DNA of 64,000 nucleotides from a virus. Position 1 is the first letter of the stretch. Every line of letters starts with the position of its first letter. Made by a program: the position numbers and the translations under genes. The stretch lies in the IMG/VR virus record IMGVR_UViG_3300032053_000008; one strand, 5' to 3'. The notes below the pieces were generated by a model. That model was not told where the DNA came from, searched no databases, and was given only the letters and a program-made list of their open reading frames with translations. Positions 16,220 through 46,643 of the stretch are shown piece after piece.

Positions 16220-18964
16220 TTATTGTACTGCTTCTTGGGTTACTTCGCTGATCGACAATGTGATTGGCACAAAGTAGATCAATCCTGCTAACTTAGCTTC
16301 AACCGTTACAGTCATTACACCGCCAACCAATCTAACAGAAGCATTCTTGTATCCAAGAGGTGCATCATTAGAAGTAGCGATCCACTTGAGTCGGTAAAAG
16401 TTATACATTTGACCTTGAAGGAAGGACAAGGCAGCTGCAGCCGAAACTTCAGCAACTGATTGACCAACCACAACTTTGTCAAAAGCATCGATCAAGCTGA
16501 GGGTCATCAAGTCAGCCAAGTAGACGGCCTGAATGCTGTTGAACACAAAGTTAGAGTCAAGCGTGTAGGTAGTTTGGTCGCTAACGAACCGGAACCCGCC
16601 AGTGTTCACAGATTCCAAAGGAAGGAGACCGGCCTTAAGGGCGGTTTCCTTTTGGCTATAGCTGCGAGCATTGTAACTTCCATCAGCATGGAACAAACCA
16701 GCGATATTAGCGAATTTTTTGACAATACCACGGTAACCAGCAGCTGCTTGCATACCTGATGCGATTACGGCAGCCATCCAAGGCTGGTAAGACACGATCA
16801 GACCGCTAGCGCTGAGGTTTCTAACGTCTTGGAAAGACAAAGAACAACGGAAAGAAGTTAAATCACCTGCAGCTTCTTGTTGTTCAGTAAAGGTGCCAAC
16901 TCGTGACAAAAATGCTTGGCGATTAGCTCTAGACTTAACAGCGCTGCTAGAAATTACGTTAGACTTACAGGCTGCATTAATGGCATCGATTGTATAAGTA
17001 GAGCTAGACGAAGTTTCGCCAGTAGCGATATCGGTCGTAGCATCAGCCGAGAACAAAGGAACCAGGAAGTTCAAAGTAAGGTCTTTGGTTGCCTCAACTG
17101 CTGAGATTACGTCAGCGCCAGTTGTGCCACCCCGAAGTCCGCCGCTAAGGAAGTTAAAAGGTACCAAAACTTCTGGCAAACCAGCTGTTGCTGCCATAAC
17201 AGTAGACACCAAAGTAGACGAAGCCATTTCAGCTGCCCAGTCAAAAGCATCATACTTGATGCGAGCTGCTTCGTATCCAGTGATACTAGAAGCACCAAAG
17301 GTAGCTTTGTCCAAAGACCTGGGTGATACAAAGTTGAATTTGCTAGAACCAATGCTAGCCGACCAACCATTTTGAGCATTAATTGAAGCAACCAAATCAG
17401 CTAGTGTCAAGATTGTGTCAAAACTGAAAGTCAAAACACCGTTTGTGTCAGTAAGAGTCATGGCAGATGAAGAAACTTGAACTGTAGCTGTAGCACTTGT
17501 ACTACCAATACGAACAATAATATCTCCACCAGCTTCAATGGTGTTTGTATTGGAACCTTGGGTTAAGGTCATGCGGTTGATATATTCTGCACTAGAAGTG
17601 TAGAAAGTATCACCAGCATCGCTAGCTGCACCAGCCGAAGTTCTCAAAAAGGCGTCATAGTCACCAAAGGTTTCCATGGACTTACCGGTACCATCGATAG
17701 TCGATTTCAGGACCGTAAAGCCAGCAACCACGGCACTAGCCGAACCACTGGTACCAGCACTGCCGTAGCTCATGCGGAAACAGGTGATAGAAGTAGAGGT
17801 AGAACCAGTTACGCTATAGAAACCAGGCTGAATACCAGCAAAAGCTGCAGTAACTTTAAGGATGTCGCCAACACTAGGTTTGCCAACAAAAGCAACGCTA
17901 GACGTAATAGATACATTAGTACCGTCATTAATAACAGTCCAGTTAGCAGTTCCAGTAGACACAGTGCGAGCTTGGCCGGTTATATTATAGATACTGACCT
18001 GTTCCCACAAAACCAAGTCTTTTTCGCCAGAGTCAATTACACCGCTACCGGCTTCGATTGGTCCAGCAACGTTAATTGGTTTAAGGGTCATAGAGGCGTT
18101 AGAGGCTGTATTGGTTACGCTAAGAACAACATAGCTACCAATATTACCGTTACTTGCACCTTTAACGCAAGAAGAAACAACCGCGCCAAAAGAACCGGCA
18201 GCAGGGATAATTACTGTAGACCCAAGAGCAGGTACAGCGGCAAATGTTTGGCCAGTAGCCAAGGTAATTTTCAGGTTAGTGGATTGGACACTAGCGGTAA
18301 GAGCGATACCTGCCTTACCAGACAAAGAAGCTATAGCTGCTCCACCGGAAACCATAATTCCATTAGAAACGCTACCAACGGCAGCAGCAAAAGCTGCTAC
18401 GTCATCGCCAGCAGACAAGGTAAATGCATGGTTAGATGAACCGTTGATGTTGATAGAGCATCCAGTTGTGCTACCGGTATACAAAGGTGTATAAGCTTTA
18501 AGTAGAATAGTTGGAACAATTTCAGATTGAGCGACTTCGGACTTATAACGAACAAGGTTACCGGAATCTCCACCACGTACTGCTGCCAAAAGAGCATAGT
18601 CGGCAATACCAGATCTAGTCAGGATTGCGGAAGCTTTAGTAGATGCATTGGTTTTGATAATACGGATAGAAGCTGGTGCTCCGGCTACTTGTGGGTCCGA
18701 CGAAGGAGCCACAATAGACCGGTAAGCATCGACAATACGGCCTGAACCGTACTTTTGCAAAACTGCGTCAAATTGGTCTGGTCCAAAGATATTGGCATTT
18801 AGGTCAGTTTCCTGACTAAAGCCAGGACCTTCGGCTGCTTCGCCGACAAGAGCGACAACGCCAGAGGTTGGAATACCGGTTTGGCCAGAAATGACCTTTT
18901 GGGTCACATACGTTCCTGGTACTGTTAGTACAAGTCCGTCTGCGGTGATTGTTTGTTGCGCCAT
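16220..18964 (-). CDS. Tail sheath protein
   Basis: PGTYV, VALVGEAAEGP N-terminus; LSGG; C-terminal sheath domain (DQTTY, IYFVPITL). Confidence 0.9.
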   Translation of the reverse strand: MAQQTITADGLVLTVPGTYVTQKVISGQTGIPTSGVVALVGEAAEGPGFSQETDLNANIFGPDQFDAVLQKYGSGRIVDAYRSIVAPSSDPQVAGAPASIRIIKTNASTKASAILTRSGIADYALLAAVRGGDSGNLVRYKSEVAQSEIVPTILLKAYTPLYTGSTTGCSININGSSNHAFTLSAGDDVAAFAAAVGSVSNGIMVSGGAAIASLSGKAGIALTASVQSTNLKITLATGQTFAAVPALGSTVIIPAAGSFGAVVSSCVKGASNGNIGSYVVLSVTNTASNASMTLKPINVAGPIEAGSGVIDSGEKDLVLWEQVSIYNITGQARTVSTGTANWTVINDGTNVSITSSVAFVGKPSVGDILKVTAAFAGIQPGFYSVTGSTSTSITCFRMSYGSAGTSGSASAVVAGFTVLKSTIDGTGKSMETFGDYDAFLRTSAGAASDAGDTFYTSSAEYINRMTLTQGSNTNTIEAGGDIIVRIGSTSATATVQVSSSAMTLTDTNGVLTFSFDTILTLADLVASINAQNGWSASIGSSKFNFVSPRSLDKATFGASSITGYEAARIKYDAFDWAAEMASSTLVSTVMAATAGLPEVLVPFNFLSGGLRGGTTGADVISAVEATKDLTLNFLVPLFSADATTDIATGETSSSSTYTIDAINAACKSNVISSSAVKSRANRQAFLSRVGTFTEQQEAAGDLTSFRCSLSFQDVRNLSASGLIVSYQPWMAAVIASGMQAAAGYRGIVKKFANIAGLFHADGSYNARSYSQKETALKAGLLPLESVNTGGFRFVSDQTTYTLDSNFVFNSIQAVYLADLMTLSLIDAFDKVVVGQSVAEVSAAAALSFLQGQMYNFYRLKWIATSNDAPLGYKNASVRLVGGVMTVTVEAKLAGLIYFVPITLSISEVTQEAVQ

Positions 18965-19238: not shown

Positions 19239-20648
19239 TTATTTCTTCTTTGCTTTAGATGCCTTAGCATCTAAAGCAGCTTTCTTTTCTTTAGCTCTTA
19301 CGAAGTTATGTTTGTCGTCTTCAGCAAACTCTTTAGAATCTTCTTGTTCGCTTGAAACAGATTTATCTGGATTCACAGGGTTAGCCCAAGAATTATCCGA
19401 ACCCTTTTTTTTGTAATATTTAGGTTCCCACTCTTCTTTAACTAATGATTTAACCATATCCTTAGACCAGAAAGTACCCTTAGAGTTTTCCTGTTGTCCA
19501 CCTGAACCGTTTTGGCAATCTTTTGGAGCTTCTACAGTTTTAGGTGGGCAATTTGTCAAGTTTTTAGCTAACTTGATTAACAAAAGCTTAGAAGGATTAG
19601 AAATAAGCTTTAAGTCTTTGTTCTTTTTGTCTTTTAATGGCATTGCCATGATTTGCAAAGTCTTTTGCAGACTTTCTGCATATCCGGTACCCATTTCACC
19701 AGCTGCCTTGCTTAAAAGGAGCAGTTCATTTTTCATGAACTCTGGGAAACTGACAGCAAATTGGTCCCATTTAGCAAACTTAGGGATAAACGGGCTAAAA
19801 ATTTCTTTTTTAATAATTTGACGATCTTTTGCCGCAGTAAGATCTTTATCAATCTTTATTGCATGCATGTCTTGAGAATGTGCTTTTATTCTTGCAGTTC
19901 GCAGATCCCAAGGTCTCCCCTTTACTTCACCTCCACGGCTTTTAGCACGGTCTTTTGACTGATTTTTTTCCTCTGTTAAATCTGCATCCGATTCATTAAC
20001 GCTACCCTTGTTCATCATTCCCTCAACTGAAGACTCATTAGAAGGTATCATAGAAGCATCTGCTTTTACAATAGCTTTTTTAGAGGCTTGCTGCCGAGAC
20101 TGAATAGTATCTAGGGCAGTAGTTGGACCTTTAGGGGCGGTTGGTGCTGGAGCTGGAGCAGCTCCTTTACCATACAGTTTAGCCTTAAGGGCTTTAGTGT
20201 TGGCAGCTTGAGCGATAGGATGATTCATGTCTTTATAGTTCAAAACAGGCGCATTGGCTTCATTTGAAGCAGGTTTGGCGTTCATTTGCTGATAATTCAG
20301 AGTATTTCCAGTAGGTTCCGGTTTTTTAGGAGCTGGATTAAGTAAAGACAAGTCAGACTGTGGTTTATTGGTAGCCATGGTTGCTACTGCGGCTTGACCG
20401 GCTGGACTGGCTACGGCAGGCTTAGCTTTATGGGTAAGTGCATCCATAGCACTTTGAGCGGCTGGATTAAGACTAGCTTTAGCCATAGTAGGCTTAGGGG
20501 TAGCCATAGCTGCCGGAGCTTTTGGGGCAGCCGGAGCTTTTATTGCTGGAGCTGCTGCAGGCTTTGGAGCCGACATTTTAGGGGCAGCTGGGGCAGACGG
20601 TGCCGCTGGAGCTGTCGCTTTAGGCATACTTGGTTCTGCGGGTTTCAC
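19239..20648 (-). CDS. Low-complexity Pro/Ala/Lys-rich protein, probable internal head protein
   Basis: GTG start with AGGAG RBS; disordered composition; many hydrophobic-x-K-[A/S/G/N] motifs. Confidence 0.55.
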   Translation of the reverse strand: MKPAEPSMPKATAPAAPSAPAAPKMSAPKPAAAPAIKAPAAPKAPAAMATPKPTMAKASLNPAAQSAMDALTHKAKPAVASPAGQAAVATMATNKPQSDLSLLNPAPKKPEPTGNTLNYQQMNAKPASNEANAPVLNYKDMNHPIAQAANTKALKAKLYGKGAAPAPAPTAPKGPTTALDTIQSRQQASKKAIVKADASMIPSNESSVEGMMNKGSVNESDADLTEEKNQSKDRAKSRGGEVKGRPWDLRTARIKAHSQDMHAIKIDKDLTAAKDRQIIKKEIFSPFIPKFAKWDQFAVSFPEFMKNELLLLSKAAGEMGTGYAESLQKTLQIMAMPLKDKKNKDLKLISNPSKLLLIKLAKNLTNCPPKTVEAPKDCQNGSGGQQENSKGTFWSKDMVKSLVKEEWEPKYYKKKGSDNSWANPVNPDKSVSSEQEDSKEFAEDDKHNFVRAKEKKAALDAKASKAKKK

Positions 20649-20695: not shown

Positions 20696-23356
20696 TTAGA
20701 TCTTTGTGGACTTACCAGACGGAAGCATTTTGACCGCCGATAAATCGCTAGTATGTTGATTTTTAACGGGTATTTTGTCGTATAGCATAACTGAGTTAGC
20801 GAAAGTAGGGGACTCATGTCCGCTAGCTTTCCAGCCTTTATACCCCATAGACTTCAGTTCATTGTGGACCAGGTCTGGGTGACTAAGCGCGTGTTCGCTT
20901 GGTCCGTAGTGCTCTTTGTGCTTGTCTTTTACCTTGGCAAACACTTTGTCTGGGTCTTTGGACAAATCGTAGATGTCTTTGTCTTTGACTTGTATATGGT
21001 ACCTGGACAAGTTGTTGAACATTTGTTCAGCGTCTTCTCCATTAGATCCGTAAGTATGCAAATAGTTTGCAGGTTTAAAACCTGGCATATTATGGTTAAG
21101 GTATTCCCGGCTTTGCTGGATACGGGCCTTTTCTTTGCCTGCCTGACCGGTAAACTGGAAAGATGGGTCTAGGGACTGAAGGTCTGGATGCCTACTAAAA
21201 TGGACTAGATCTAGCACCTTAAAATTATCTTCAGCTTTGGATATTTTGTCCCAAACACCCATTGCTGCGGGGGTTTGAAGCGAGGAACCTAAAACCTCTT
21301 TACCGGAAACTTTTTGGGCATGTTGATACATTGCAGTTGCCAGCCCTTTTCTTTGATGTTCAGGGAAAACATTAGTCATACCAGGCATAAGTTTATTTTC
21401 ATGGAGTTCGTGAGGAACAATTATGGTATGGCCAACTATCTGACCTTGTGGACTTTTTGCATAAACGTGAAGTTCATCGTGCTCTTCCTTGTCAGACAAA
21501 TCTTCATCTTGATTTGCCTTCCATTCATGAAAAACATGATAACCTTCTTTTCGCCAATCACCATTTTGGCCTTTTTCTAAGTCTTCAGCTTTAGATATAG
21601 CTTCAGACACCTTGCGATTGTGTTTTGTGTTTGACATCACAGCCAAAACAGCTTCAGTCAGGTTTTGGCCCATACCTGCCGTAAGGTTAATAGAATACTT
21701 TGTTTCCAATTTGGTCATAAAGTCGTAAAGTTCAGATTTTTCGGTAGGCGGCAGTGTAAATATAAAATCGCTACCAGCAAACCCCAGGAAATCTCCTGCG
21801 TGCTCTTCTATAAAAGACTCTATGTCTATTTTGATGTGTTGCAGCTTTTTGATTTTGTCGGTTAGCTCTTTTGTGCTGTTAGATTCCAGGGAGTCAACTA
21901 TGAAATCATATATGTCCTGGAAAGACAAACACACGGTAACCGGTTTGTATTTTTTGTCTTTTGGGTGACTTTTTTCTAGGGACTTAAAAAGCTCTTCGCT
22001 TGGCTTAGGCCAGCCAAGGTTTACCATAGTTTCTATGGCTATTTGCCTTTGTTCGGATTTACCAAAAGGACGATTTTTTTGACCCCATAAAGCATAAGCA
22101 TCCTCTGATTGTTGACCATCAGTACCTCTAATCTTCTTACCAGTTAACTTTTCTGCCATTACATATGCCGATGTTGCTAACCCTTTACGTTGATGTGTAT
22201 CTTCGGTATCACTATTAACAATACCCAGATGTTTTCCAGTATGATCGTGTTCGAAAATATAAAGCCCTGCCAACTTACCGCTTGGATGATAGGCATGAAT
22301 AATTACGCCATATTTATTAACTTTAGGGGTAAGTTTATAGCCTTCTTTTTGCCAATCACCATTTTGACCTTTTTCTAGGTCTTCGGATTTGTTAACAATA
22401 CCTTTACGCTTAGCCATTTCTCCAGCCCATTTGCTGACGTTTCTGTCTGGATCTCTAAGGCCCATCTGAACCGTGGTTTCATCTGCACCAGGATGAGACA
22501 ATAAAAGCTTTTTTATTCCCCACTTAGGATGGTTCATCATAAAGTTAAGTTCAGCAGGTTTATAGTTTTTATGTTTAGCCATATAAGGGGCTGCTGCAGC
22601 ACCATGAGTATGAGGGGCACCAAAGTCACTGTTAACTATGTCGGTAGTTGGGAACTTGGTGTTGTCTCTAGGCACATTTTTGTGGGGGCTTACAATAAAT
22701 TCGTCTTCGTGTCCGTGACCGGCTGGATCTGTGTCAGGGTGACCTAACTCATAGCTGAACCAAACGTTCTTTAAAGGAACGTGCTGGTGATGTTCATGTT
22801 GACCAAATTGTCCTTGAGTTTTGTCGGCTATGGAATACAAAGCATGGTCATCTCCCCTTTGGCTTGGGGTTATGTTCATGTTCCTAGCCAGACGCAAATG
22901 GGGGGTACCATTAAGTTGGTCTACGGCCTTAGGGGCATTTTGGGTAATAGTGTCATGCAAGCTACGCTGGTGAGCTAGTAGCTGCGGAACAATATGAGGG
23001 TTTTGGGCTAGACCGGCGCTAAGGCTATCTGTAGTTATGTGACCAATCTTTTTCGCGGCATTGCCTTGTTGGTGATGACTCAAAAACGCCTGGTCCATCA
23101 TTTTTTGTTGGTCTGGCTTAGATGCCGAATAAGCGTCAGCATTTTCAGATCTGTGGATAGCGTACTTTAGCAAAAGAGATGAAGGTGAATGGGGAGAATG
23201 CTTATAGCTAGAATACATCTCATTTAGTGTAGCATTTGGCTTAAAGTGCGGCGTAGGTGCGCTAATAGGCAAACTAGAATGGACCTGTAGCCCAATTTGC
23301 TTGTCTTGGCTGGTACTAGAAGACAATGCACTTGGGTGTTTAGTCATCGTTATCAT
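20696..23356 (-). CDS. Polyvalent multidomain protein: ART-like, HEAT, GNAT, mCpol-like, GNAT, ART-like
   Basis: Two HQRKGLAT acetyl-CoA motifs; R...S...EDEFIV ART pattern; AGMGQNLTEA mCpol-like motif; C-terminal HFS..LDP..GYKG pattern. The GNAT calls are firmer than the others. Confidence 0.7.
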   Translation of the reverse strand: MITMTKHPSALSSSTSQDKQIGLQVHSSLPISAPTPHFKPNATLNEMYSSYKHSPHSPSSLLLKYAIHRSENADAYSASKPDQQKMMDQAFLSHHQQGNAAKKIGHITTDSLSAGLAQNPHIVPQLLAHQRSLHDTITQNAPKAVDQLNGTPHLRLARNMNITPSQRGDDHALYSIADKTQGQFGQHEHHQHVPLKNVWFSYELGHPDTDPAGHGHEDEFIVSPHKNVPRDNTKFPTTDIVNSDFGAPHTHGAAAAPYMAKHKNYKPAELNFMMNHPKWGIKKLLLSHPGADETTVQMGLRDPDRNVSKWAGEMAKRKGIVNKSEDLEKGQNGDWQKEGYKLTPKVNKYGVIIHAYHPSGKLAGLYIFEHDHTGKHLGIVNSDTEDTHQRKGLATSAYVMAEKLTGKKIRGTDGQQSEDAYALWGQKNRPFGKSEQRQIAIETMVNLGWPKPSEELFKSLEKSHPKDKKYKPVTVCLSFQDIYDFIVDSLESNSTKELTDKIKKLQHIKIDIESFIEEHAGDFLGFAGSDFIFTLPPTEKSELYDFMTKLETKYSINLTAGMGQNLTEAVLAVMSNTKHNRKVSEAISKAEDLEKGQNGDWRKEGYHVFHEWKANQDEDLSDKEEHDELHVYAKSPQGQIVGHTIIVPHELHENKLMPGMTNVFPEHQRKGLATAMYQHAQKVSGKEVLGSSLQTPAAMGVWDKISKAEDNFKVLDLVHFSRHPDLQSLDPSFQFTGQAGKEKARIQQSREYLNHNMPGFKPANYLHTYGSNGEDAEQMFNNLSRYHIQVKDKDIYDLSKDPDKVFAKVKDKHKEHYGPSEHALSHPDLVHNELKSMGYKGWKASGHESPTFANSVMLYDKIPVKNQHTSDLSAVKMLPSGKSTKI
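21539..22390 (-). repeat. Two copies of K[S/A]EDLEKGQNGDW[Q/R]KEGY (22337-22390 and 21539-21592)
   Basis: 16 of 18 residues identical; each copy directly precedes a GNAT domain. Confidence 0.95.
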
Positions 23357-24455: not shown

Positions 24456-25258
24456 TCTTTAGTAGCATAATCGTATGCGGCAGGAATACTGTGAAGAGGT
24501 TTAACTTCGGGGTACATCCACCTTCCCTCTGCCTCATGCTTGCTACTTACAACCCTAAATGTAACTACTTCTTTTTTGACCTTACCTCTTTTAGATGGTC
24601 TTTGGACCACAACTCCACCTGACAGATAGTGAGCACCTTCGTAGTTTGGTAGCCCTAGAGCTTCAGCTTCATCAGCTGTACGCCCTTTAGACCGGTATTG
24701 GTATATGTTGTCGCTAGCCGGGTCATTTAACTGAGGGATGTCTTTTAGCCTGTTAACTATGCCAATCATTGGCATTCCATCGGGGCCTTTTTCGATTTTA
24801 CGCATACTGACGCCATTTGCCTTAAGGGAGGCATCTATAGCTTCTCTCATACCAGAAGGAGTGGTCAGAGCGTTTTTGTCATGGCTAAAAGGTATGACCT
24901 TGAATTTACTGCCATCTTTGGCAGTCTTAAGTCCCGGACCTGGTTTAAGCAGCCAGTCTTCTGTTGCCATACTCACGGCTGGCCTACCGCTCTCGACCCA
25001 CTTAGCTGATTCATCGATTTCTACTACCCACATATTCTTAGAAACTTGTATCCATCTGATATTGCTACCATCTTCACCTAAAAATGCTTCTAGTGGGTAA
25101 CCTTTTAAGTGGTCCTGAGCATACTTGATAATAAAAGCGTGGGTGGAAATAGAAAGGGCCTCTACAGCCCCATTCAATTTCTTTGCTACCTCTTTTTCTA
25201 CAACACCTAGCTTATCAGCTATTTCTTTGTAGTTAGCCCTTATGGTAAAGTCGGTCAC
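24407..25258 (-). CDS. Neck/tail-completion protein
   Basis: KTAKDGSKFKVIPF and TFRVVSSK..W.YP motifs, as in SPO1-like neck proteins. Confidence 0.6.
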   Translation of the reverse strand: MTDFTIRANYKEIADKLGVVEKEVAKKLNGAVEALSISTHAFIIKYAQDHLKGYPLEAFLGEDGSNIRWIQVSKNMWVVEIDESAKWVESGRPAVSMATEDWLLKPGPGLKTAKDGSKFKVIPFSHDKNALTTPSGMREAIDASLKANGVSMRKIEKGPDGMPMIGIVNRLKDIPQLNDPASDNIYQYRSKGRTADEAEALGLPNYEGAHYLSGGVVVQRPSKRGKVKKEVVTFRVVSSKHEAEGRWMYPEVKPLHSIPAAYDYATKEWDKIVKSLEDYFRGA

Positions 25259-26472
25259 TGCTGCTTAGCCTTTTGTTGTTGATTGTTGGCTTTTACCGAT
25301 ATATCAGTACCATCGGTAGCCTGAACTTGGCCTGAGGCCATTGAGCGCCATACTTCTTTACCGTTTACCAGAACTTTTTTGTAGTTGCCCTTGCGGGTTC
25401 CAACAGGGAAACGGATACCAGACATAGCCTGAGGACCAGAAGAACTGACGCCCTTTTTTTCTAGGTCTTGTTCAGATTTTTGAACTTGCTTGGCGCTGGT
25501 GATCAATTTCTGGATCATAGACATAGTTTGCTGGAAAGCTTTAGGGTCCTTGCTGGCCATAGCCATAATCTGAGGTATTTGCGCCTTAACGTCTTTAAGT
25601 TTGTCCATTAATTCTTGGTTGTGGTCGGCGGTAGCTTCTTTGGTAGCATCATCGACTTCTTGAGCTACTTCTTGTGCTGCCTGTTCTTGTTCCTGTCCGT
25701 CACCTTCGCCCTGTTGTTGTCCAGGTGCCTGTTGTTGTTGAGGCTGACCACTAAGTTGACCAAGCAAATCAGTAGTATTGGTATTAGCATGGGCATCTGG
25801 GTCTTCCTGGCCTTGCGGCTGTTGTTGTTGCTGGGCTTGTTGTTGTTGCATCATTTGCTGTTGTTGTTGAGCGGCTTGTTCGATTTCCCCGGCACCAAGC
25901 ATTTCATTTATGGCTTGAATAAACTGGGCTTCAGCGCTAAAACTTTCTTTTAGAGACATACGCTTGGGCACTGGATTAGATTTTTGGTCTATAACTTTTT
26001 GGTAAGGCTTGTCATCTGGCTGTTCTGGGTCAAATAGGTTGGTAGGCAAACTGACGTTTTGATTTATGTTTGTTCTTGAATTGGAAGTTTTTGTAATTTT
26101 TTCTTGGTAAGTATCTGCCGGATTAAAAAGTTCAACTTTACCAGTTTTATAAGATTTCTTGGCAGCCATTGCCGCTTCTTGGAAATCTAATCCAACACCA
26201 ATAGCCAGTCCATCTCCAGCAGTTTCGGTAAAGTTTTCAATTAAATTAGGTAGTTCTGCCGCTACATCAATAGGTATTTCCATAGCTATAAAGTCTGGAT
26301 TACAAAATGGCATAGATCCACCGTGGGATTCCACAGTAGATTTCATTTTGTCTATAAGTCCCTGTAATTCAAACTGATAATGGTTGGCTACGCTAAATCG
26401 GCCCTCTTTGGCCGAATTAATTAGTTTGTCTCTTACTGCATCCGCAAATATAACTGCCCATACCTTACTCAT
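25255..26472 (-). CDS. Protein with N-terminal mCpol/GGDEF-like palm domain and Gln-rich linker
   Basis: AIGVGLDFQEAAMAAKKSYKTGK; polyQ; KSEQDLEKKG motif near the C-terminus. Confidence 0.55.
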   Translation of the reverse strand: MSKVWAVIFADAVRDKLINSAKEGRFSVANHYQFELQGLIDKMKSTVESHGGSMPFCNPDFIAMEIPIDVAAELPNLIENFTETAGDGLAIGVGLDFQEAAMAAKKSYKTGKVELFNPADTYQEKITKTSNSRTNINQNVSLPTNLFDPEQPDDKPYQKVIDQKSNPVPKRMSLKESFSAEAQFIQAINEMLGAGEIEQAAQQQQQMMQQQQAQQQQQPQGQEDPDAHANTNTTDLLGQLSGQPQQQQAPGQQQGEGDGQEQEQAAQEVAQEVDDATKEATADHNQELMDKLKDVKAQIPQIMAMASKDPKAFQQTMSMIQKLITSAKQVQKSEQDLEKKGVSSSGPQAMSGIRFPVGTRKGNYKKVLVNGKEVWRSMASGQVQATDGTDISVKANNQQQKAKQQ

Positions 26473-28021: not shown

Positions 28022-28987
28022 CGTTTTTGGGCCTTTAGTGGGTGGAGCGCCGAAATTTCCTACAGTATTATTAGTAGCTTCCGGGTAAATACCGCTATAT
28101 TGACGAGGAGCCAAATCGCTTCTTGGGTCATCCCCCTGAAGAGGTCTAGCTGGATCATTGCGGTTTTTATCCATAAAGATATTTTCCCTTAGTGCCAAAA
28201 CCTCAAAAGGCATTCTTTCAAGCTTTCTTTCATAGGTTAAGGGATCGGTAACATTTGTAACTCTGATTTCATGTAAGATCTTATCAACTATGAAAAAAGG
28301 AGTATACAAATAACGTACCGCATAAACAGTTTCTCTTCCTATTGTTGGATTATACCCAGGTCTTCTTTGGGTGGTCCATTTAAGCCAGCCCTCAGAAGTA
28401 ATGACAAAATCTTTGTCTTGGGTATATTCTTCGCCATTAGCATCTACAAGGTCCACAACCTTTAGAGCAGGGAATTGCAAACGATCTATTCCAGTTGAAC
28501 TGGCTTCCATGTATTGCATACAAGATACATACATTTCTATGTCAGCTAAATAGAATCTATCCCAAGCTTGCAAAATTACTGGCTCTAAACTATCTTCGTA
28601 ATACCTTGTAACTGTTAAATAAACTGAAGCAAAAGACAGGTTTCCCATATCTTCAGCTTTTGTGTCTTTAGTATTATTATGGAACCAAGCATACACATGT
28701 CCGGAATTTTTGTAAATATATCCATCAGAGTTGCGCGGTCTAAGATTCATTACATCTCTATTGTCACCACGGCTGGCCATACCTCTTGGGTCTGGCAAAG
28801 CTCTTTGATGAACAAGCCTTACTCCGTGAGTTTTGATCAAAAAATCGAATTTGTCTGCATCAAAACTGACCTGAGATTTAGTTAGGTCAATAATGCTTTG
28901 AGGACCTTCAAGAGGCCTATCTACTCTTGGTCTTGGACCATTGTCTGTATGGTCGGTACGACCTTTAGGTGGCTTAGGTGGCTTCAT
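28019..28987 (-). CDS. Head closure/neck protein
   Basis: Neck-cluster position; FD..KFD.LI..HG, WDRFYL, YAVRY patterns of SPO1-like neck proteins. Confidence 0.55.
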   Translation of the reverse strand: MKPPKPPKGRTDHTDNGPRPRVDRPLEGPQSIIDLTKSQVSFDADKFDFLIKTHGVRLVHQRALPDPRGMASRGDNRDVMNLRPRNSDGYIYKNSGHVYAWFHNNTKDTKAEDMGNLSFASVYLTVTRYYEDSLEPVILQAWDRFYLADIEMYVSCMQYMEASSTGIDRLQFPALKVVDLVDANGEEYTQDKDFVITSEGWLKWTTQRRPGYNPTIGRETVYAVRYLYTPFFIVDKILHEIRVTNVTDPLTYERKLERMPFEVLALRENIFMDKNRNDPARPLQGDDPRSDLAPRQYSGIYPEATNNTVGNFGAPPTKGPKT

Positions 28988-29457
28988 CTGAAGTCCTTGT
29001 GACTAAGCAATACGTCAGGTAGAGAGTTAAGGGAAATATTACGTACAACCATTTTACTTTTGTCGGTATATGACAGTTTTTGCAAGTCTTCTTTTTTAGA
29101 CAAACCAATGTCATCTGTTTCCGTGTTGAAAGTGACGTACAAGGGCGAGTCTGGGAAATCTGTTTGAATAGGGGTAGCAAAATATGCCAATAGCTTAGAA
29201 TAAAGATCTATGTCAGATTTCATTAGATCTTCGCTTTTAACCATGTCTTCATTCCACTTGATCTTTGGCTCAGCTTTTTCAGCCATCCACTTAGCTACGG
29301 CTTTGTGGGGAGCCATCGACAGGGTTTTAACCTCAGACTTAGACTTTTGAAAAAAGCAATGCAAACCGCCATGAGTCAAAATGTACATAATAGGGTCTTT
29401 GTCGAAAGTAGCCCCTACGATCTTTTTTTCTGACACTTGATCTAGATCAATTTTCAT
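28984..29457 (-). CDS. Hypothetical protein with KSEDLMKS motif
   Basis: Overlapping start/stop coupling with neighbours. Confidence 0.6.
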   Translation of the reverse strand: MKIDLDQVSEKKIVGATFDKDPIMYILTHGGLHCFFQKSKSEVKTLSMAPHKAVAKWMAEKAEPKIKWNEDMVKSEDLMKSDIDLYSKLLAYFATPIQTDFPDSPLYVTFNTETDDIGLSKKEDLQKLSYTDKSKMVVRNISLNSLPDVLLSHKDFR

Positions 29458-29858
29458 AAAGTAAACATCCTTTTGATTCTATCAAGGAAAGTCGGCTTGT
29501 TGTGTTCTGGTTCGATTTCCTTGTCTTCAAAGGCATTGTCTCTAATAATATGCTCTTTTTGATCTTCTCTGGCCCGATACTCTAACCACTTATAAAAATC
29601 AAAAGAAAAATCAATGCTTTTAGGTAGCTGCAATTGAGTTTTAATTAATGGTTTTTCTTTATTAAAATGGGCCGCCAAATAAGAAGTACTGTTAAAATAC
29701 CTCAATAAGAAAACTTTTGCTTCATCAAGATCTTTTGCTTTGTCTAGCATAAGGCTTATGGATGGGTAACTTTCAACAATTGGTTCCATGTCAGACCAGT
29801 TGTTAACTTTAAACTGTTTTTCTTCATTGCTCATGGTGTTTTTAACTATTAATATCAC
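29454..29858 (-). CDS. Hypothetical protein
   Basis: Operon context. Confidence 0.55.
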   Translation of the reverse strand: MILIVKNTMSNEEKQFKVNNWSDMEPIVESYPSISLMLDKAKDLDEAKVFLLRYFNSTSYLAAHFNKEKPLIKTQLQLPKSIDFSFDFYKWLEYRAREDQKEHIIRDNAFEDKEIEPEHNKPTFLDRIKRMFTL

Positions 29859-31164
29859 CTAAGAATTTCCTTACCTTGTGTGACATAAACGGAGTTAAAT
29901 GTTTGGCCCCATTTGGCATCTTGTCGTCATGGGCAAGTATATCACGGAGTTTAAGTTTGTCTAGGTGTTTATGGTAGTCAGTTTTTTTGCCGTTGTCTTG
30001 CATAAGAGCTTTAGTTATATGAAGTTTGGCTTGGATTCCATTGTCGTTATGTGGAAAATTACCTAATATTTCTAACAATTTATCTTTAGGTATATCATTA
30101 AACTGCTCTTTGCCTGTAGCTGAGCCAACAGCTTCAGATATATCCCATGGATTATGAGTTTTTCCATGCAAAGATTTAGCTACGTGATTTAAAGCTTTGT
30201 CTGGGGTACCATCAAGATATAGAACATTACTTTTGTTTTTTGGTTGATCTGCGGAAATATCCGAAAAGAATGGTTCATGCCCAGCTAAAGTGTCATTTGC
30301 CCATTTAGTCATGGCATCGTGTCTGGATTTATAAGAAGATACTATGTGATTTTTCCAGTCATCATGTTTAATGCCGTTAGCTTCATCAATCAAAGAGCCT
30401 TTAACTTTTGGAGCACTATTTAACCACCAAGATGCTAAATTTTTAGCATGTTGGTGGTCTCTATCGGCCTCTGGAGTAAAACGATATAAAGCACTGTTAC
30501 GCGTTAAGTCTTCCATTGAGTTAGTACCACGATCATAACCAAAAGCGAAAGAGTGATCAATAGCTAGTGGACTGTGATACCCTTTTTGGTCTGGAAGATT
30601 ATTGGCCATTATATTGCCAGAATGTCTGTCAATATTACCTGTAAGGTAGTCCATTACATTAATTTTATTAGCAACAAGTGGATCTATTTGATGTTTTTGA
30701 TGGTTATATTCTTCAGTATTATCAGCAAACTTGTGGACCATTACCGGCATTTCACCAATAGAAGTGCTTAGAGTGTGGTGTTTTACATCTTCGATGTTGT
30801 GGTGTAGGCCAGCCGCTTCGTACATTCTTTTTGTGGCTGAGGTAGCAAATCCACCTAAACCGTTGTTTACTTTAGAGTTATAAGGCTTAACCATAAACGT
30901 ACTGTTTGGCGTTTTGTATACCAGCTTGTCTTCATACCCTTCAGCCATATTTTTAGGCTTGTGGTGTTCGCTAGAAGACACGGCTTGATCAAAGTCCGCA
31001 TGACCGCCAGCAGATTGGGTAGGTTTCAGATATGACGCAGATTCTTCATTGTGGGCCTTACTAGCAAAATCAGTCAATGAGGGCTGGTCTAGCTTTTTAG
31101 CCAGCAACTGTTCAGTAGGTAAGTACTCAGGTTGAGTCCTTAGTGTATACCACGCCTTTATCAT
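29842..31164 (-). CDS. PI3K/PI4K/HipA-like kinase
   Basis: FMVKP catalytic Lys; DYLTGNIDRHSGN catalytic loop; LAIDHSFAF Mg-binding motif. Confidence 0.75.
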   Translation of the reverse strand: MIKAWYTLRTQPEYLPTEQLLAKKLDQPSLTDFASKAHNEESASYLKPTQSAGGHADFDQAVSSSEHHKPKNMAEGYEDKLVYKTPNSTFMVKPYNSKVNNGLGGFATSATKRMYEAAGLHHNIEDVKHHTLSTSIGEMPVMVHKFADNTEEYNHQKHQIDPLVANKINVMDYLTGNIDRHSGNIMANNLPDQKGYHSPLAIDHSFAFGYDRGTNSMEDLTRNSALYRFTPEADRDHQHAKNLASWWLNSAPKVKGSLIDEANGIKHDDWKNHIVSSYKSRHDAMTKWANDTLAGHEPFFSDISADQPKNKSNVLYLDGTPDKALNHVAKSLHGKTHNPWDISEAVGSATGKEQFNDIPKDKLLEILGNFPHNDNGIQAKLHITKALMQDNGKKTDYHKHLDKLKLRDILAHDDKMPNGAKHLTPFMSHKVRKFLGDINS

Positions 31165-33096: not shown

Positions 33097-33104
33097 AAAA
33101 ACTC

Positions 33105-35202: not shown

Positions 35203-36612
35203 TTAGCTCAAGTTTTGGATCAAGACGTTTTTACGTGGCTCATAGCCAGCAAGTGTCAAGAAGCGGAAGTGAGCTTCTGGGACGCTCAAGTCAGCTACAG
35301 CCAGTTTCAAGCGGCTATATGGTGCAAGTTCACCCATACCCCAGGTGTCTTTCTGGACAAGGTGACCAGTAACGAAGCCTGGGATGCGGTTGCCCAAGTC
35401 AACAAACGCAGTCGAAGCTGGTGTGTCGATTTTGACGCGACCGATATACTTAGCGTCAGAACCATCGGTTTTGAAACCACGGTATACGCTGAAGAACAAA
35501 GTGCCAGCGCCTGGGGAAGCGATAGTAAGGGTGATTTTTTGACCAGCAGTAGCAGCTTGGGTTACAGTAGAGCTACGTGGGGATTCGCCGCGCTCGTTAG
35601 AAGCGGTAACGAAGTAAACGTAGGTAGCAGCAGCCAAAGATCCGCCAGCAGCAGCAGCAGCCGTTGGAACAACAGGAGCATTAGGGGAACCGATGGATGG
35701 ACGCAGTGGAGCAGTTTTACCCGACAAGAATCGGCTGTCTTCCAGAGCGATCGTACCATTAGAAACCCACTGACGACGAAGGTCAGCACCGGAAGCGTCT
35801 TGAGCCGAACCGGCCAAGTGAATACGCTGGATAGAAGCACCGGCATTAGAGCCACCGTTCAAAGCAACAGCTTTGTTATAACCAGCAAGAACGATTGGGT
35901 CAACAAGCAGCAATTCTGCTTTACCCATGTTCATACGGCTACGAACAGCGGAATCTTCAATGATGCCTTGGCTGAGGGAACCGTTTTGGTTGAGGACAAC
36001 CGACTGGTTCGAGCCGTAGGAATCAAACATTAAGTCTTGAGTGTTGAGCAAGTAGTCAGATTGCGTAACTTGGCACTCAACGCCAAGGATGTTTGGCAAT
36101 TCTGGCATAGCAAGTGGGTTACAGTCAAACACACCAGCATTGCTGAAGTCGGCTTTTCCACGGAAAAGATCGAATTCGATGTCGCCAGCCAGTTTCATAG
36201 CTGCGTTTTCAGCTTCACGGTCGGAACCGCCTTTGCCGTCAAACGTGTCAACCATGTTAGCTGCAACAGTTACCCGACGAACGGTCGAGTAAAAGCACAT
36301 TGGCACAGTTGCTCGGATGTAATCACCCGTGTCAACATCACCAATAGCGCCTTCGCGCATAGCCGTTCCACCGAAATGACCGTAGCTTAGCTGACGGTTA
36401 AATTGCATCAAAAGTGTTTTGACTTTTTTAGAGCCAAACATTTTTTGCAATTTAATGTGACTGTCATCGAAAGTCACGTTGTACATAACCGAAGACAGAT
36501 CTTCGATTTGAAGGGCCGAGCCTTGTACAAGCGTACTAGGAGCAGCATTGTACTGACCAGCCGTCAAGGTCTTGACGAGTGATTCTAGTTGTTGATTGAG
36601 ATTGTCAAACAT
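35203..36612 (-). CDS. Major capsid protein (SPO1/Herelleviridae-like)
   Basis: KTLTAG..GSALQIEDL N-terminus, IEFDLFRG, C-terminal L..YEPRKNVLIQNL; Ig-like insertion; follows the scaffold; terminator downstream. Confidence 0.9.
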   Translation of the reverse strand: MFDNLNQQLESLVKTLTAGQYNAAPSTLVQGSALQIEDLSSVMYNVTFDDSHIKLQKMFGSKKVKTLLMQFNRQLSYGHFGGTAMREGAIGDVDTGDYIRATVPMCFYSTVRRVTVAANMVDTFDGKGGSDREAENAAMKLAGDIEFDLFRGKADFSNAGVFDCNPLAMPELPNILGVECQVTQSDYLLNTQDLMFDSYGSNQSVVLNQNGSLSQGIIEDSAVRSRMNMGKAELLLVDPIVLAGYNKAVALNGGSNAGASIQRIHLAGSAQDASGADLRRQWVSNGTIALEDSRFLSGKTAPLRPSIGSPNAPVVPTAAAAAGGSLAAATYVYFVTASNERGESPRSSTVTQAATAGQKITLTIASPGAGTLFFSVYRGFKTDGSDAKYIGRVKIDTPASTAFVDLGNRIPGFVTGHLVQKDTWGMGELAPYSRLKLAVADLSVPEAHFRFLTLAGYEPRKNVLIQNLS

Positions 36613-37520
36613 TATTTTTTACTCCTAAGTATTTCGATTACTTTGTCTTTGCCTGCATAATTCAAAATGTAGTTATTAACGAGATCACGTTCTGATTTGT
36701 TCAGTGTACCCGATCGGCACACGTCATTCAGACTAGCTTTCAAAGCTTCATCCGACATTTCAGCAAAGTTTGGCTGAGCTGCAGCTTGCGCGGCAGGAGC
36801 TTCGCTTTTTGAGATGTACTGGATTTCAGAAGTGATTGCTTTTCTTACTGGTTGGGCAAGAATTTTAACCGCTTGCAGAGCTTTATCAAGGCCAGCTTTG
36901 AGTTCGTCATTGCTTTTCTTTAAGTCTGCAACTTCCTTGGCCAAACCATTGGTTTCTGATTTTTTCATAGCTGGTGAACTCATTTCACCGCATTTGTCCA
37001 TTTCTTCTTTAGCTATCCCAGCCTTAATTTGGCCGCCGTTTGCTTCAGGAGCTTTTTCGGCTTTGGAGTATTGCTGCTGGAGCAATCCACGGATAACCAT
37101 ATAGTGGCGCTCTAGCTCTTCTGGAGCCATAGAGCTATACACTTGCTGAAGTTCTTCATCAGACAAATTCTGGTCTTGAGCAGGATCTTGGCCTTCTTGA
37201 CCTGGTTCCTGTTGTTCTTGACCTGGCTGTTCTTGTCCTTCTTGACCTTCAGCTCCTTCTGCCATTCCTTCACCAGCTTCTGGCGCTTCTTGTACTGAAG
37301 CTTGATCTTCAGCACCAGCAGCGGCTGGAGCTTGGGCTCCAGCATCAGCGGCGGGGGCGGCAGGTGCAGCTGGGGCCGGGGCAGCAGCAGCTTGGTCGGC
37401 TGGAGCTTCCTGGTCGTCGCCAAAACCCTTAGACAGATCTTCAGACTTTTTCATGGCTTCAGCAAAAGCTGAGTCAAGGTCTGCAAGAAGATCGTCCAGG
37501 CTCACCTGTACGTTTTTCAT
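36612..37520 (-). CDS. Capsid scaffold protein
   Basis: Acidic, Ala/Gln/Glu-rich coiled coil directly upstream of the capsid gene; several KSE motifs. Confidence 0.7.
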   Translation of the reverse strand: MKNVQVSLDDLLADLDSAFAEAMKKSEDLSKGFGDDQEAPADQAAAAPAPAAPAAPAADAGAQAPAAAGAEDQASVQEAPEAGEGMAEGAEGQEGQEQPGQEQQEPGQEGQDPAQDQNLSDEELQQVYSSMAPEELERHYMVIRGLLQQQYSKAEKAPEANGGQIKAGIAKEEMDKCGEMSSPAMKKSETNGLAKEVADLKKSNDELKAGLDKALQAVKILAQPVRKAITSEIQYISKSEAPAAQAAAQPNFAEMSDEALKASLNDVCRSGTLNKSERDLVNNYILNYAGKDKVIEILRSKK

Positions 37521-44418: not shown

Positions 44419-45013
44419 TTTTTGCCCCGTAAACCATGTCGTTAAGGAGTTTGCGCATTAGCTTTTGATTGTTCTGGTCCAGTTCGCTAAAGTAAGCTTT
44501 TTCGATATGTGGGTCATGTCCATGGGAATAGCTGCCAAGTTCGGTCTTAGACATTTTTTGACTAGCCAAAGAATAGTCATTAAACTGCTGCTGTCTGGCG
44601 TTTCCTACATGGTCTTCAACTGGTCTTGGTATACCCTGAAGCTCATTTGGCATGTCAAGGTTAGCTTTGGATGCCACCTTAAGCTTGCCGGTAGCCAACA
44701 ACTCATGGACGCGCTTGAACTCATCTTGACTAAGCATTCGATTATTAAGGGCAGCGGTTAGTCCATCGGAGGTAATTTCAATTGTGTCGCCATTAGTTAA
44801 ACTATAGGTATGAGATTTTACATTAGGGTTGCTAATGATCTCTAAGCTGTCACTTTCGTCAATAGCGTTGATGCCTGCCATTACACCTTTGGCAAACATC
44901 TTTTGGATCTTACCGCCAGTTTTGTCGTAAGTAAAAAGTAAAGTTTTACCATCAGTGCGAATTTCGGCCAAAGCTTCATTCGTATGAGGAGATTTGATTA
45001 TCAGAGCCTGCAT
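44411..45013 (-). CDS. Hypothetical protein
   Basis: Overlap-coupled between the protease and the giant gene. Confidence 0.6.
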   Translation of the reverse strand: MQALIIKSPHTNEALAEIRTDGKTLLFTYDKTGGKIQKMFAKGVMAGINAIDESDSLEIISNPNVKSHTYSLTNGDTIEITSDGLTAALNNRMLSQDEFKRVHELLATGKLKVASKANLDMPNELQGIPRPVEDHVGNARQQQFNDYSLASQKMSKTELGSYSHGHDPHIEKAYFSELDQNNQKLMRKLLNDMVYGAKND

Positions 45014-46643
45014 TGTTTAACTCTTCAAAAAGCTGGTTGAAAGTCCTGCCGTGAGACTTTTGTTTGATATGGTCCAAATTTCTCTGAGCTTTAGCGGCGT
45101 TAGCTGGCGATGCGCCAGTATTATTAATAAGATACACGTAAAGCTGGGAAGGGTCAAGCTGGTCTAGCCATTCTTGGGTCTGGGGTACTAGCATATCTTC
45201 CCCTAAACCGGAATTTTCCTGGTCGTCATAATAGTCTGAAGGATTTCCGTTAGAAAACTTGTACAAAGGCCCGTTATTGACGTGGGTAATTTGGCCACCA
45301 TTTGCAGCCGTGTCTCCCCAGGTCCTAGATGGATGACCTAGACACAAATCAACTATAGCCATTTGTTGAAGTCGGCCAGTTTGCCTAGCTTGTTGCAAGG
45401 CATTTTGGTAGCCTTCGGTGCCCATTGGCTCATAGTCGTTACAAGAATTGATGCCCAAAACCGTGTTGTATAGACTTGGGTGGTCACACCATGCCGTATT
45501 TGGAGTAATATCTGGTAACTTAAAGAAATTCTTAGCAATTTCATGGTACTTAGTGGCGTCTTTGAATTTGTCTGCCGCCTTTGGGTTGACCGACAGTTTG
45601 ATCAACATTGTGCCATGAGTAGGGCTATTATACAAAAACTTGCTATTTTTGCTTTGCAGTCTTTTCAGTTTTCCAGGTACGTCCTTTTTCATGTCTATCA
45701 TAGGTACAGCCTGCAGGGCTGCATGAGCCAGACTGTCCTGGCTAAATGATGCATTGCCATTAGACAAAGCCGACAAACTAGGTTCAGTTTTCTTTAGGTG
45801 GAGTTCTTGGGTGACGCCTTCAAAGTGATCCAAGTAGTCATCACTTACTTCAGGTAAAGCTGCTTTGAGGATTGGTCGAAGAGGTGATTTTCCATCCCAA
45901 CTGGCTACTATCTTAGCAAGTTTTTTGCGTCTTTCGGGTGACAACCCGGCAAGACTTTCTCTTTGCAAGGCTGAGCCTTGAGTCAAGGTAGATGGAGCTG
46001 CATTGTAGCTGCCAGCCGTAAGAGTTTTCTTAAGGGCCAACACCGCTTCTTTGATTGTTTCTAGTGGGGTAACGGTTTTAGCTATGTCTTCAAAGATAGC
46101 ATCTTCGACTTCAATAGTTCTATAGGAAGGTTCGGTGTCCCATCCCATAGTTTTTTCTATGTCGTCGCCTTCGTAAATATCTGATATTGCTGACTTATTG
46201 CACGGACGAGCGGTTAGTGCAAGTCTTCTACCAACAGATCTCTTTAACTCATATCCTTGTCTTTCTAATGTGGAACCTTCAATAGAAAACCCAACAACCA
46301 TTGGAGTTTTTCTTTTTTGGCAATATCTAAACATTGCCGCACAGGCAACCGCACCTGGATGTTTTTCATCATCAAATAGTTCCGATATTACATACACAAA
46401 AGGAGTTTTGACCTTGTCCCAAAACATTTCCTGGCGCTTGTTATCACAGTCAGACTTTTTCATTATCTTTTTTGCAAAAATAATCTTGCCAACTATATCT
46501 TCTGGTGAGTCATTTTGGTGCTCCCAGTTCACCAAACCACGACCTTCAACTAAGTCAGAGATGTCATGCCCTTCAATATGGAGCATTTCTCCTGAAGAAT
46601 CAATATGTTGCGATGCAGCAATTCCATCGATTTTTAATCCCAA
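44976..46643 (-). CDS. Prohead protease with C-terminal kinase-like extension
   Basis: GIAA..DSSGE, NWEH, GFSIEG, ALTARPCN (HK97/SPO1-type protease), followed by a capsid-arm copy and a degenerate kinase domain. Confidence 0.85.
   Translation of the reverse strand: MGLKIDGIAASQHIDSSGEMLHIEGHDISDLVEGRGLVNWEHQNDSPEDIVGKIIFAKKIMKKSDCDNKRQEMFWDKVKTPFVYVISELFDDEKHPGAVACAAMFRYCQKRKTPMVVGFSIEGSTLERQGYELKRSVGRRLALTARPCNKSAISDIYEGDDIEKTMGWDTEPSYRTIEVEDAIFEDIAKTVTPLETIKEAVLALKKTLTAGSYNAAPSTLTQGSALQRESLAGLSPERRKKLAKIVASWDGKSPLRPILKAALPEVSDDYLDHFEGVTQELHLKKTEPSLSALSNGNASFSQDSLAHAALQAVPMIDMKKDVPGKLKRLQSKNSKFLYNSPTHGTMLIKLSVNPKAADKFKDATKYHEIAKNFFKLPDITPNTAWCDHPSLYNTVLGINSCNDYEPMGTEGYQNALQQARQTGRLQQMAIVDLCLGHPSRTWGDTAANGGQITHVNNGPLYKFSNGNPSDYYDDQENSGLGEDMLVPQTQEWLDQLDPSQLYVYLINNTGASPANAAKAQRNLDHIKQKSHGRTFNQLFEELNNAGSDNQISSYE

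Follow-up and report, generated by a model that had tools for sequence, protein, structure and literature searches.

A phage polyvalent protein built from exchangeable enzyme cassettes bounded by candidate prohead-protease sites

Polyvalent proteins are regarded as a phage's opening weapons, and by the account published so far such a chain of unrelated enzymes would be made usable in the host through self-processing, carried out by metallopeptidases built into it. We consider here the gene for an 886-amino acid (aa) protein, hereafter P0001, in a 64,000-nucleotide stretch (the window) of the IMG/VR virus record IMGVR_UViG_3300032053_000008. We find that P0001 consists of a fixed frame, formed by an ADP-ribosyltransferase (ART)-like domain and helical repeat at the N terminus, a degenerate mCpol-like domain and, at the C terminus, a domain of ART fold, and of two exchangeable cassette slots, and that its module boundaries carry a short peptide, K-[S/A]-E, which recurs in the scaffold and in other head proteins of the same phage. 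[quoted passage not shown] The gene also brings together several biochemically disparate domains and a late, virion-gene setting, and P0001 is in this sense a polyvalent protein.

From N to C terminus the modules of P0001 are the R-S-ExE ART-like domain and helical repeat, a first GNAT acetyltransferase (GNAT 1), the mCpol-like palm, a second GNAT (GNAT 2) and the ART-superfamily-fold domain, with GNATs filling both cassette slots (Table 1). A database copy of the protein begins at Met4 and counts 883 aa, and a start at Met4 is possible. The protein has no close sequence relative among 50,697 phage records, where its gene found no match at the DNA level and the protein a single one, confined to a GNAT; a PHROGs search likewise gave no match.

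The N-terminal domain (N-domain) contains four residues, R158, S175, E217 and E219, which are nearly invariant, with at least 90% conservation across 34 family sequences. In its AlphaFold model (predicted local distance difference test, pLDDT, of 86.7) these residues are placed on strands 1, 2 and 5 (strands 151-160, 174-177 and 219-222), and a helical subdomain precedes them, as in C3/VIP2-type ARTs. In a second look by structure comparison all 11 entries with Z of at least 2 were R-S-E ARTs (Z 2.7-4.1, root-mean-square deviation 4.3-6.7 Å), comprising Tre1, ART2.2, C2-I, HopU1, C3, ExoS/T, Vis and XopAI; the domain matched no Pfam family at E ≤ 1 and its family profile retrieved nothing relevant from PDB sequences. 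We call the modelled domain ART-like on residue pattern and fold taken together, and not on the fold score alone. It recurs in 105 representative clusters of large multidomain proteins, for the most part within chains of 500-2400 aa and at varying positions. Behind it, residues 252-322 match helical-repeat proteins at Z ~5, and the homologue P0008 carries LRV_2 repeats at the equivalent position.

The two cassettes are paralogues. GNAT 2 is recognized by PF00583 (26-28.7 bits, cut-off 20.7), and GNAT 1, which has no Pfam match of its own, is classed as a GNAT because it shares 39% identity with GNAT 2 (E 2e-17); both contain Q-R-K-G-L-A, a form of the acetyl-CoA motif Q/R-x-x-G-x-G/A. Between them, the mCpol-like module (residues 481-575) scores 26.3 bits against PF18182 when searched alone, just under the cut-off of 26.4, and 22.1 bits within the whole protein, and an iterative search ties it to proteins with precomputed PF18182 assignments; it is homologous to true mCpol modules. 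Its palm catalytic acids are missing, with S-F-Q and A-G-S-D in place of D-G-D and G-G-D-[DE], and they are equally lost in the orthologues P0004 and P0005. Because the DxD and GGDD acids are gone, the module is probably noncatalytic, and probably neither a nucleotide cyclase nor a polymerase.

The C-terminal domain (C-domain; 177 residues, model pLDDT 84.2) was compared with 48,161 chains, and the 50 best matches are nearly all ART-superfamily folds (Z 6.7-3.4), led by the cyanophage A4 ejection protein (Z 6.7), MbcT (6.5) and the anti-CRISPR entry 6kyf (6.2), and including NatT, diphtheria toxin, ParT and PARPs. The match to 6kyf, which we take to be AcrIF11, an ART, extends over 117 residues at 12% identity. 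Within the family H719, S721 and Y786 never vary, and Y769, Y796 and D797 hardly do; H719-x-S721, Y786 and the three near-invariant residues are candidates for the H-Y-[E/D] scheme of ARTs, in which a His closes strand 1, a further strand carries a Tyr and the third residue is acidic. A further conserved motif is G838-Y-x-G841. Pfam has no family that matches either of the ART-like domains of P0001, the C-domain profile found nothing relevant among PDB sequences, and a word-indexed search with the C-domain region returned only P0001 itself and P0003. We read both terminal domains as ART-related on their VIA-align match lists and conserved residues; Foldseek gave no match at E ≤ 0.001. Membership of ART-PolyVal (PF18760) was considered for the C-domain and rejected, with no hmmscan match at E ≤ 1 and an hhalign probability of 0.1% against the ART-PolyVal region of phage Mx1.

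As a separate observation, the best C-domain match corresponds to residues 1418-1608 of PDB entry 9k3a chain B, the pre-ejectosome protein of cyanophage A4. The term 'ADP-ribosyl' is absent from the cyanophage A4 paper, and judging from the model comparison an ART-fold domain in that ejection protein may have gone unremarked.

These results bear on an original prediction made from the letters of the window. Its reading of an 886-aa frame in five segments agrees with the gene call, Pfam, paralogy, conserved residues and structure models; the R-S-ExE pattern followed by HEAT-like repeats is matched by near-invariant residues, their strand placement, the R-S-E ART matches and the helical repeat; and its two GNAT segments were recovered, GNAT 2 through PF00583 and GNAT 1 as its paralogue. 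The homology of the mCpol-like palm also held, without the catalytic acids, so that of 'about five separate enzymes' the five modules stand but the five enzymes do not: there would be at most four, plus one probably noncatalytic module. The His-type ART-like C-terminal domain kept its ART-superfamily fold and lost its assignment to ART-PolyVal.

What sets P0001 apart lies between these modules. K-[SA]-E occurs five times in the protein, at K323, K433, K540, K589 and K707, against 0.76 copies expected (p = 0.0008), and four of the five positions are module boundaries, K323, K433, K589 and K707 being the very borders at which the prediction had placed its K-[S/A] motif. Among all proteins of the window KSE is the third most over-represented tripeptide, behind two Q-rich low-complexity words. 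The full linker reads [hydrophobic]-x-K-[S/A]-E, often followed by -[D/Q]-L-x-K-G, and two boundaries of P0001 carry the long form K-[SA]-E-D-L-E-K-G-Q-N-G-D-W; the linker that follows helix 307-317 has low pLDDT in the model. A further candidate, L-F-K458-S, corresponds to the 'FKSLEKS' noted earlier and retains h-x-K-[SA] (h, hydrophobic) in all four orthologues. About 140 metagenomic relatives likewise show the motif at the edges of modules. Of its copies in 133 relatives, 20-22% fall within 25 aa of an annotated domain edge, where ~5% would do so if placed at random (at most 11% over 500 trials). Annotated domains, covering 19% of residues, contain only 11 of the 233 copies, and the extended form is present in 36 copies vs. 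1.5 expected. The recurrence of the motif at module edges is not chance. Three other positions in P0001 were rejected as sites: K540 (P-T-E-K-S-E-L), which falls within the mCpol fold and has no conserved counterpart in P0004 or P0005, and K634 and K462, neither of which is conserved.

The same boundaries are where modules are exchanged. P0003 (in L002) and P0005 (in L003) are syntenic orthologues of P0001, and P0004, from a 9-kb contig, is a third; motif boundaries were compared in all four orthologues and synteny is shown for two. The N-domain, mCpol-like domain and C-domain are common to the four proteins. Slot 1 holds a GNAT in P0001 and another GNAT-like module in P0003, and is empty in P0004 and P0005; slot 2 holds a GNAT in P0001, a ParB-like module in P0003 and DUF5661 in P0004, and is empty in P0005. 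These variable slots start and stop at K-[SAT]-E, and the motif borders non-GNAT modules as well (ParB-like, DUF5661, C-domain, mCpol). At the DNA level homology between the P0001 gene and its counterpart in L002 is limited to aa 3-329, 430-595 and 706-887, and its breaks lie no more than 6 residues from K323, K433, K589 and K707. In more distant relatives ...N-R-P-F-G-K-S-E-[DE]-L-x-K-[GA]... recurs between GNAT, ParB-like, NUDIX, kinase, mCpol and C-domain modules. The prediction had suggested comparing homologues for domains swapped exactly at the motifs, and both the orthologue slots and the DNA homology breaks display such swaps. The architecture and the rule of cassette exchange at the motif are thus established, and the conserved linker doubles as a short shared DNA sequence for cassette exchange between phages.

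The motif is furthermore a property of the head module as a whole. The scaffold-like protein contains five K-[SA]-E copies where 0.66 are expected (p = 0.0006), the first of them as M-K-K-S-E-D-L-S-K-G, and the Mx1 scaffold, WNM70326.1, contains four; in SPO1, K-S-E-D is found immediately upstream of the protease domain and in the scaffold, which is otherwise rich in K-S dipeptides mostly lacking the Glu. A broader pattern, [LIVMFY]-x-K-[SAT], reaches significance in three proteins, namely scaffold, portal and protease, but is too common to do so over the whole of P0001. Two further proteins of the module, of 157 and 405 aa, carry long-form copies that are conserved in L002 and L003: the first has three motif copies vs. 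0.15 expected (p < 0.0002), and in the second, in which F-A-D and N-P-D replace the mCpol catalytic motifs, the copy comes after a long low-complexity Q-rich middle and precedes a basic C-terminal tail. Together, these observations identify a short recurring motif common to scaffold and head proteins and located in exposed linkers, as is expected of prohead-protease substrates.

A protease to act on it is likely encoded in the same operon. The 555-aa protein resembles at its N terminus the SPO1 head maturation protease gp3.2 (27% identity, E 2e-12) and the N terminus of P0007 (35% identity), gives a weak match to phrog_1028 and has language-model features indicating Peptidase_S78/S77; Pfam and PDB sequence searches with it found nothing. 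By homology and by its position between the portal and the scaffold and capsid genes, we assign it as a putative SPO1/HK97-type prohead serine protease, in line with the prohead-protease context of the prediction, which the motif shared by scaffold and other head proteins also supports. The link between protease and cargo is made physically in P0007 (L009:8001-11282), a single 1093-aa chain consisting of an SPO1-type prohead protease, a scaffold-like region with K-S-E copies and three GNATs, whose gene adjoins a capsid gene in divergent orientation. P0142, in turn, is a solo GNAT preceded by a 68-aa leader and N-K-S-E-E-L-D-K-G and ending in ...R-P-F-G-K-P, and its gene has as neighbors, on either side, the two neck-gene families that in the window border the kinase-like gene.

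We therefore envisage, on present sequence evidence, the following sequence of events. P0001 would be co-assembled into the prohead, where the SPO1-type prohead serine protease would cut within the linkers, most likely between K and S/A, as the N-terminal site of the capsid protein would suggest. Cuts after Lys would yield pieces of 35.8, 12.3, 17.8, 13.4 and 20.4 kDa, and K458 might be cut in addition; the folded pieces would remain in the head and enter the host with the DNA. There the ART-like and GNAT modules would modify host proteins, for takeover or anti-defence. Phages use GNAT and ART chemistry against CRISPR.

The alternative that fares best, and which we nonetheless regard as unlikely, is that P0001 stays an intact multidomain chain and that its linker is an uncut flexible joint, a recombination site or a docking peptide for scaffold, portal or capsid interior. 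It sits well with the exchange of cassettes exactly at the linkers and with the DNA of the two long-form junctions, which share 44 of 48 nt, including a 16-nt identical run, and there are precedents in the N4 virion RNA polymerase and in plasmid polyvalent proteins, which are transferred uncut (PMC5512222). Recombination, however, accounts neither for the enrichment of the tripeptide in the scaffold (five copies over 302 aa) and likewise in unrelated proteins of the head, nor for persistence of the motif at the amino acid level in Mx1, nor for the leader and motif attached to the solo GNAT P0142.

The position of the cut is a second point on which readings diverge. The N termini of the major capsid proteins align as S-L-V-K14-T-L-T-A-G (window), E-L-R-K14-A-M-E-A-G (Mx1) and A-L-N-K23-A-L-E-A-G (SPO1), and because of these sites and of the P0142 terminus ...F-G-K-P we favor a cut between K and [S/A/T] of h-x-K-[S/A/T]. 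A511-type capsids lose 23 residues at a Lys-Ser bond. We consider it quite improbable that the linkers are instead cut after Glu (K-S/A-E, then x), or by a ClpP-like pair or a host protease, possibly only after injection. A cut after Glu is conceivable because that residue is strongly conserved, equalling Lys in the linker, and because P0010 begins M-D-L-S-K-G-Q, directly after the K-S-E position; T4 gp21 and the phiKZ/SPN3US proteases do cleave after Glu (PMC10052503), and two ClpP paralogues are encoded in the structural operon. Yet the capsid site that Mx1, SPO1 and the window phage have in common reads K-[T/A]-[L/M] and shows no Glu two residues past the Lys, P0008 has F-A-K-S-T ahead of its C-domain, most K-S dipeptides of the SPO1 scaffold do without a Glu, and P0142 terminates as just described. 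That P0001 is no virion cargo at all, but a late cytoplasmic enzyme array acting on phage or host components, with the likeness to the scaffold motif coincidental or compositional, is very improbable: its packaging is deduced and its gene is one among several enzyme-like genes (kinase, ClpP) in the structural operon, but the motif statistics and domain-edge positions, the GNATs fused to a prohead protease in P0007 and a solved ejection protein as the best C-domain structure match all speak against it.

The same capsid N-terminal peptide follows the protease domain in the window phage, in Mx1 and in SPO1. In the window the two copies read L-K-K-T-L-T-A-G-S-Y-N-A-A-P-S-T-L-T-Q-G-S-A-L-Q behind the protease domain and L-V-K-T-L-T-A-G-Q-Y-N-A-A-P-S-T-L-V-Q-G-S-A-L-Q at the capsid N terminus, and the duplication is likewise present in the other two phages. 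From its sequence, the peptide common to protease and capsid may be a docking or cleavage element.

Several points weigh against packaging, cleavage and injection of P0001 and have to be set beside the evidence for them. Packaging, cleavage, scissile bond, injection and targets are all inferred. There is no K-[SA]-E within the N-terminal 322 residues of P0001, and hence no removable leader of the T4 type that would target the protein to the prohead. Counted over all of P0001, the broader h-x-K-[SAT] pattern shows no enrichment (7 copies vs. 4.5 expected), and in relatives only 4-6% of N-domain family copies have the motif near their edges, so that the rule is specific to this lineage; recombination alone could, moreover, have maintained a conserved linker. 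The ClpP pair (32500-33899) is a further candidate for the responsible protease, the ClpP of Mx1 lying at another place in its genome. The structural assignments are individually weak as well, with Z ≤ 4.1 and Foldseek E ≥ 0.39 for the N-domain and Z ≤ 6.7 for the C-domain, and Foldseek searches of the PDB with both models gave no match at E ≤ 0.001 (all E > 0.1).

Beyond P0001 itself, a wider reading can be put forward tentatively, at somewhat less than even odds: a DNA-phage polyprotein strategy in the Mx1/SPO1-related lineage, in which h-x-K-[S/A]-E-D-L-x-K-G would be at once an effector-releasing cut site and a standard cassette joint. Its cassettes, we suggest with similar reserve, would be GNAT, ParB-like, DUF5661, ART-fold, mCpol, kinase and NUDIX modules, forming a plug-and-play injected anti-host array. 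It would also take in, as an equally provisional part of the proposal, an R-S-ExE ART family not modelled before, together with a new family of ART fold.

The window is part of a 136.8-kb record with an estimated completeness of 84%, and nearly all its long open reading frames (ORFs) lie on the minus strand. The order of genes is terminase, portal, a 251-aa ORF, the 555-aa protease gene, a 200-aa ORF, the 1929-aa ORF, two small ORFs, scaffold, capsid, the ClpP pair, neck/virion and enzyme-like genes, P0001, a 469-aa protein and the tail sheath. The P0001 gene thus has neck/head genes on one side and the tail sheath on the other, and belongs to a single same-strand operon with terminase, portal, protease, scaffold and capsid; the locus is syntenic in L002 and L003. 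The major capsid protein shares 55% identity with its counterpart in Myxococcus phage Mx1 and is distant kin of the SPO1-group capsid; the source phage is, by such sequence comparison, best described as an uncultured myovirus related to Mx1 and SPO1.

Table 1. Positions of the P0001 modules and junctions and of other features of the window
Feature	Coordinates	Strand	Basis or remark
P0001 gene, 886-aa polyvalent protein	20696..23356	-	ORF
R-S-ExE ART-like core, residues 40-232 (R158, S175, E217, E219)	22661..23239	-	
Helical repeat (HEAT/PPR-like), residues 252-322	22391..22603	-	five helices in model
Junction 1, K323-S-E-D-L-E-K-G	22367..22390	-	
Cassette slot 1, GNAT 1 (residues 326-432)	22061..22381	-	
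Junction 2, K433-S-E, closing ...NRPFGKSE	22052..22060	-	
Spacer and mCpol-like palm with degenerate catalytic motifs, residues 436-588	21593..22051	-	includes candidate site L-F-K458-S
Junction 3, K589-A-E-D-L-E-K-G	21569..21592	-	
Cassette slot 2, GNAT 2 (residues 592-706)	21239..21583	-	PF00583
Junction 4, K707-A-E	21230..21238	-	K-[SA]-E in 4/4 orthologues
C-terminal ART-superfamily-fold domain, residues 710-886	20699..21229	-	model, structure matches
Terminase	50507-52399	-	
Portal	47373-49475	-	
Candidate prohead maturation protease, 555 aa, N-terminal ~250 aa SPO1 gp3.2-like	44976..46643	-	homology
1929-aa ORF	38629-44418	-	between protease and scaffold genes
Scaffold-like acidic protein, 302 aa, directly upstream of major capsid gene	36612..37520	-	five K-[SA]-E copies
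Major capsid protein	35203..36612	-	N terminus ...S-L-V-K14-T-L-T-A-G
Two tandem ClpP-family genes	32500-33096 and 33105-33899	-	PF00574, E 3e-28 and 7e-22
440-aa protein, weak PI3/PI4-kinase/HipA-like match	29842-31164	-	between neck genes
157-aa head-module protein, V-K-S-E-D-L-M-K linker copy	28984..29457	-	motif enrichment
405-aa protein, degenerate mCpol-like N terminus, Q-rich middle	25255..26472	-	Q-K-S-E-Q-D-L-E-K-K-G copy
Tail sheath	16220-18964	-	

Several neighboring genes deserve mention in their own right. Directly downstream of the P0001 gene, at 19239-20648 on the minus strand, is encoded an Ala/Pro/Lys-rich low-complexity protein of 469 aa, 30% identical to its L003 counterpart and variable in length (469, 410 and 355 aa). 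The ClpP pair sits within the structural operon, and L002 and L003 have it too, as a conserved feature; the single ClpP of Mx1 is remote from the head genes. The slot of the 440-aa kinase-like gene is occupied in L008 by the solo leader-and-GNAT protein P0142, and the polyvalent protein of Mx1 has a kinase of 619 aa coming after it. The 1929-aa ORF matched neither Pfam nor PHROGs, and the counterpart region in Mx1 holds a 1239-aa protease fusion.

The P0001 locus and its relatives suggest a route other than self-processing, in which the head maturation protease would act on a linker of standard type, the one at which cassettes are exchanged. If this is correct, a motif search could by itself reveal the injected effectors of uncultured phages, the SPO1/Mx1-type prohead protease would have a defined specificity, those who wish to load foreign proteins into phage heads would have a natural design rule, and two uncatalogued ART-like families, one with at least 105 representative clusters, would gain a context.

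Among known systems, P0001 is closest in kind to the polyvalent proteins described for phages and conjugative elements (Iyer et al. 2017, PMC5512222), with which it shares unrelated domains (ART, GNAT, nucleotide-related) in one chain, late virion genes, mosaicism and predicted co-injection with DNA. Processing in that set has been ascribed to built-in zincin-like or assemblin-like peptidase domains, and no conserved interdomain junction peptide is described there, the word 'linker' being absent, whereas P0001 has one and additionally uses an R-S-ExE-type module as its N-terminal frame domain. Both ART and GNAT domains occur in injected polyvalent proteins, with T4 Alt as the packaged prototype (PMC5512222, PMC7824862), and phages employ the two chemistries against host RNA polymerase (PMC7824862). 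The 1479-aa 'NUDIX hydrolase' of Mx1 (WNM70333.1), which combines GNAT, ART-PolyVal and NUDIX modules, occupies the same operon position and has K-[SA]-E copies, but its set of modules differs from that of P0001. Of the single-domain anti-defence enzymes, among them also GNATs such as Rac, 6kyf resembles the C-domain in fold only (12% identity), from which no target can be deduced.

The processing proposed here finds a parallel in T4, where Alt, an R-S-E ART, and IPI-III are loaded into the prohead, cut by gp21 at a short motif and injected, and where the leader, motif and cargo layout of the internal proteins matches that of the solo GNAT P0142. In T4, however, one short N-terminal leader is removed after L/I-x-E, whereas in P0001 internal K-[S/A]-E sites would separate several folded modules, and the protease of this phage is SPO1/HK97-like rather than gp21 itself. 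The phiKZ/201phi2-1/SPN3US group (gp175/gp245; PMC10052503) resembles the P0001 phage in that many internal head proteins are cut at a three-residue motif and scaffold-like propeptides contain it in multiple copies; in SPN3US every cleavage, save those in the protease itself, takes an N-terminal propeptide off its substrate, and most of these propeptides are lost (PMC10052503). There the motif is A-x-E, cut after Glu, and, unlike what we propose for P0001, no release of serial enzymes is described. P0001 is, against this background, a polyvalent protein whose proposed distinction lies in swappable, separately folding enzymes bounded by internal protease-type sites.

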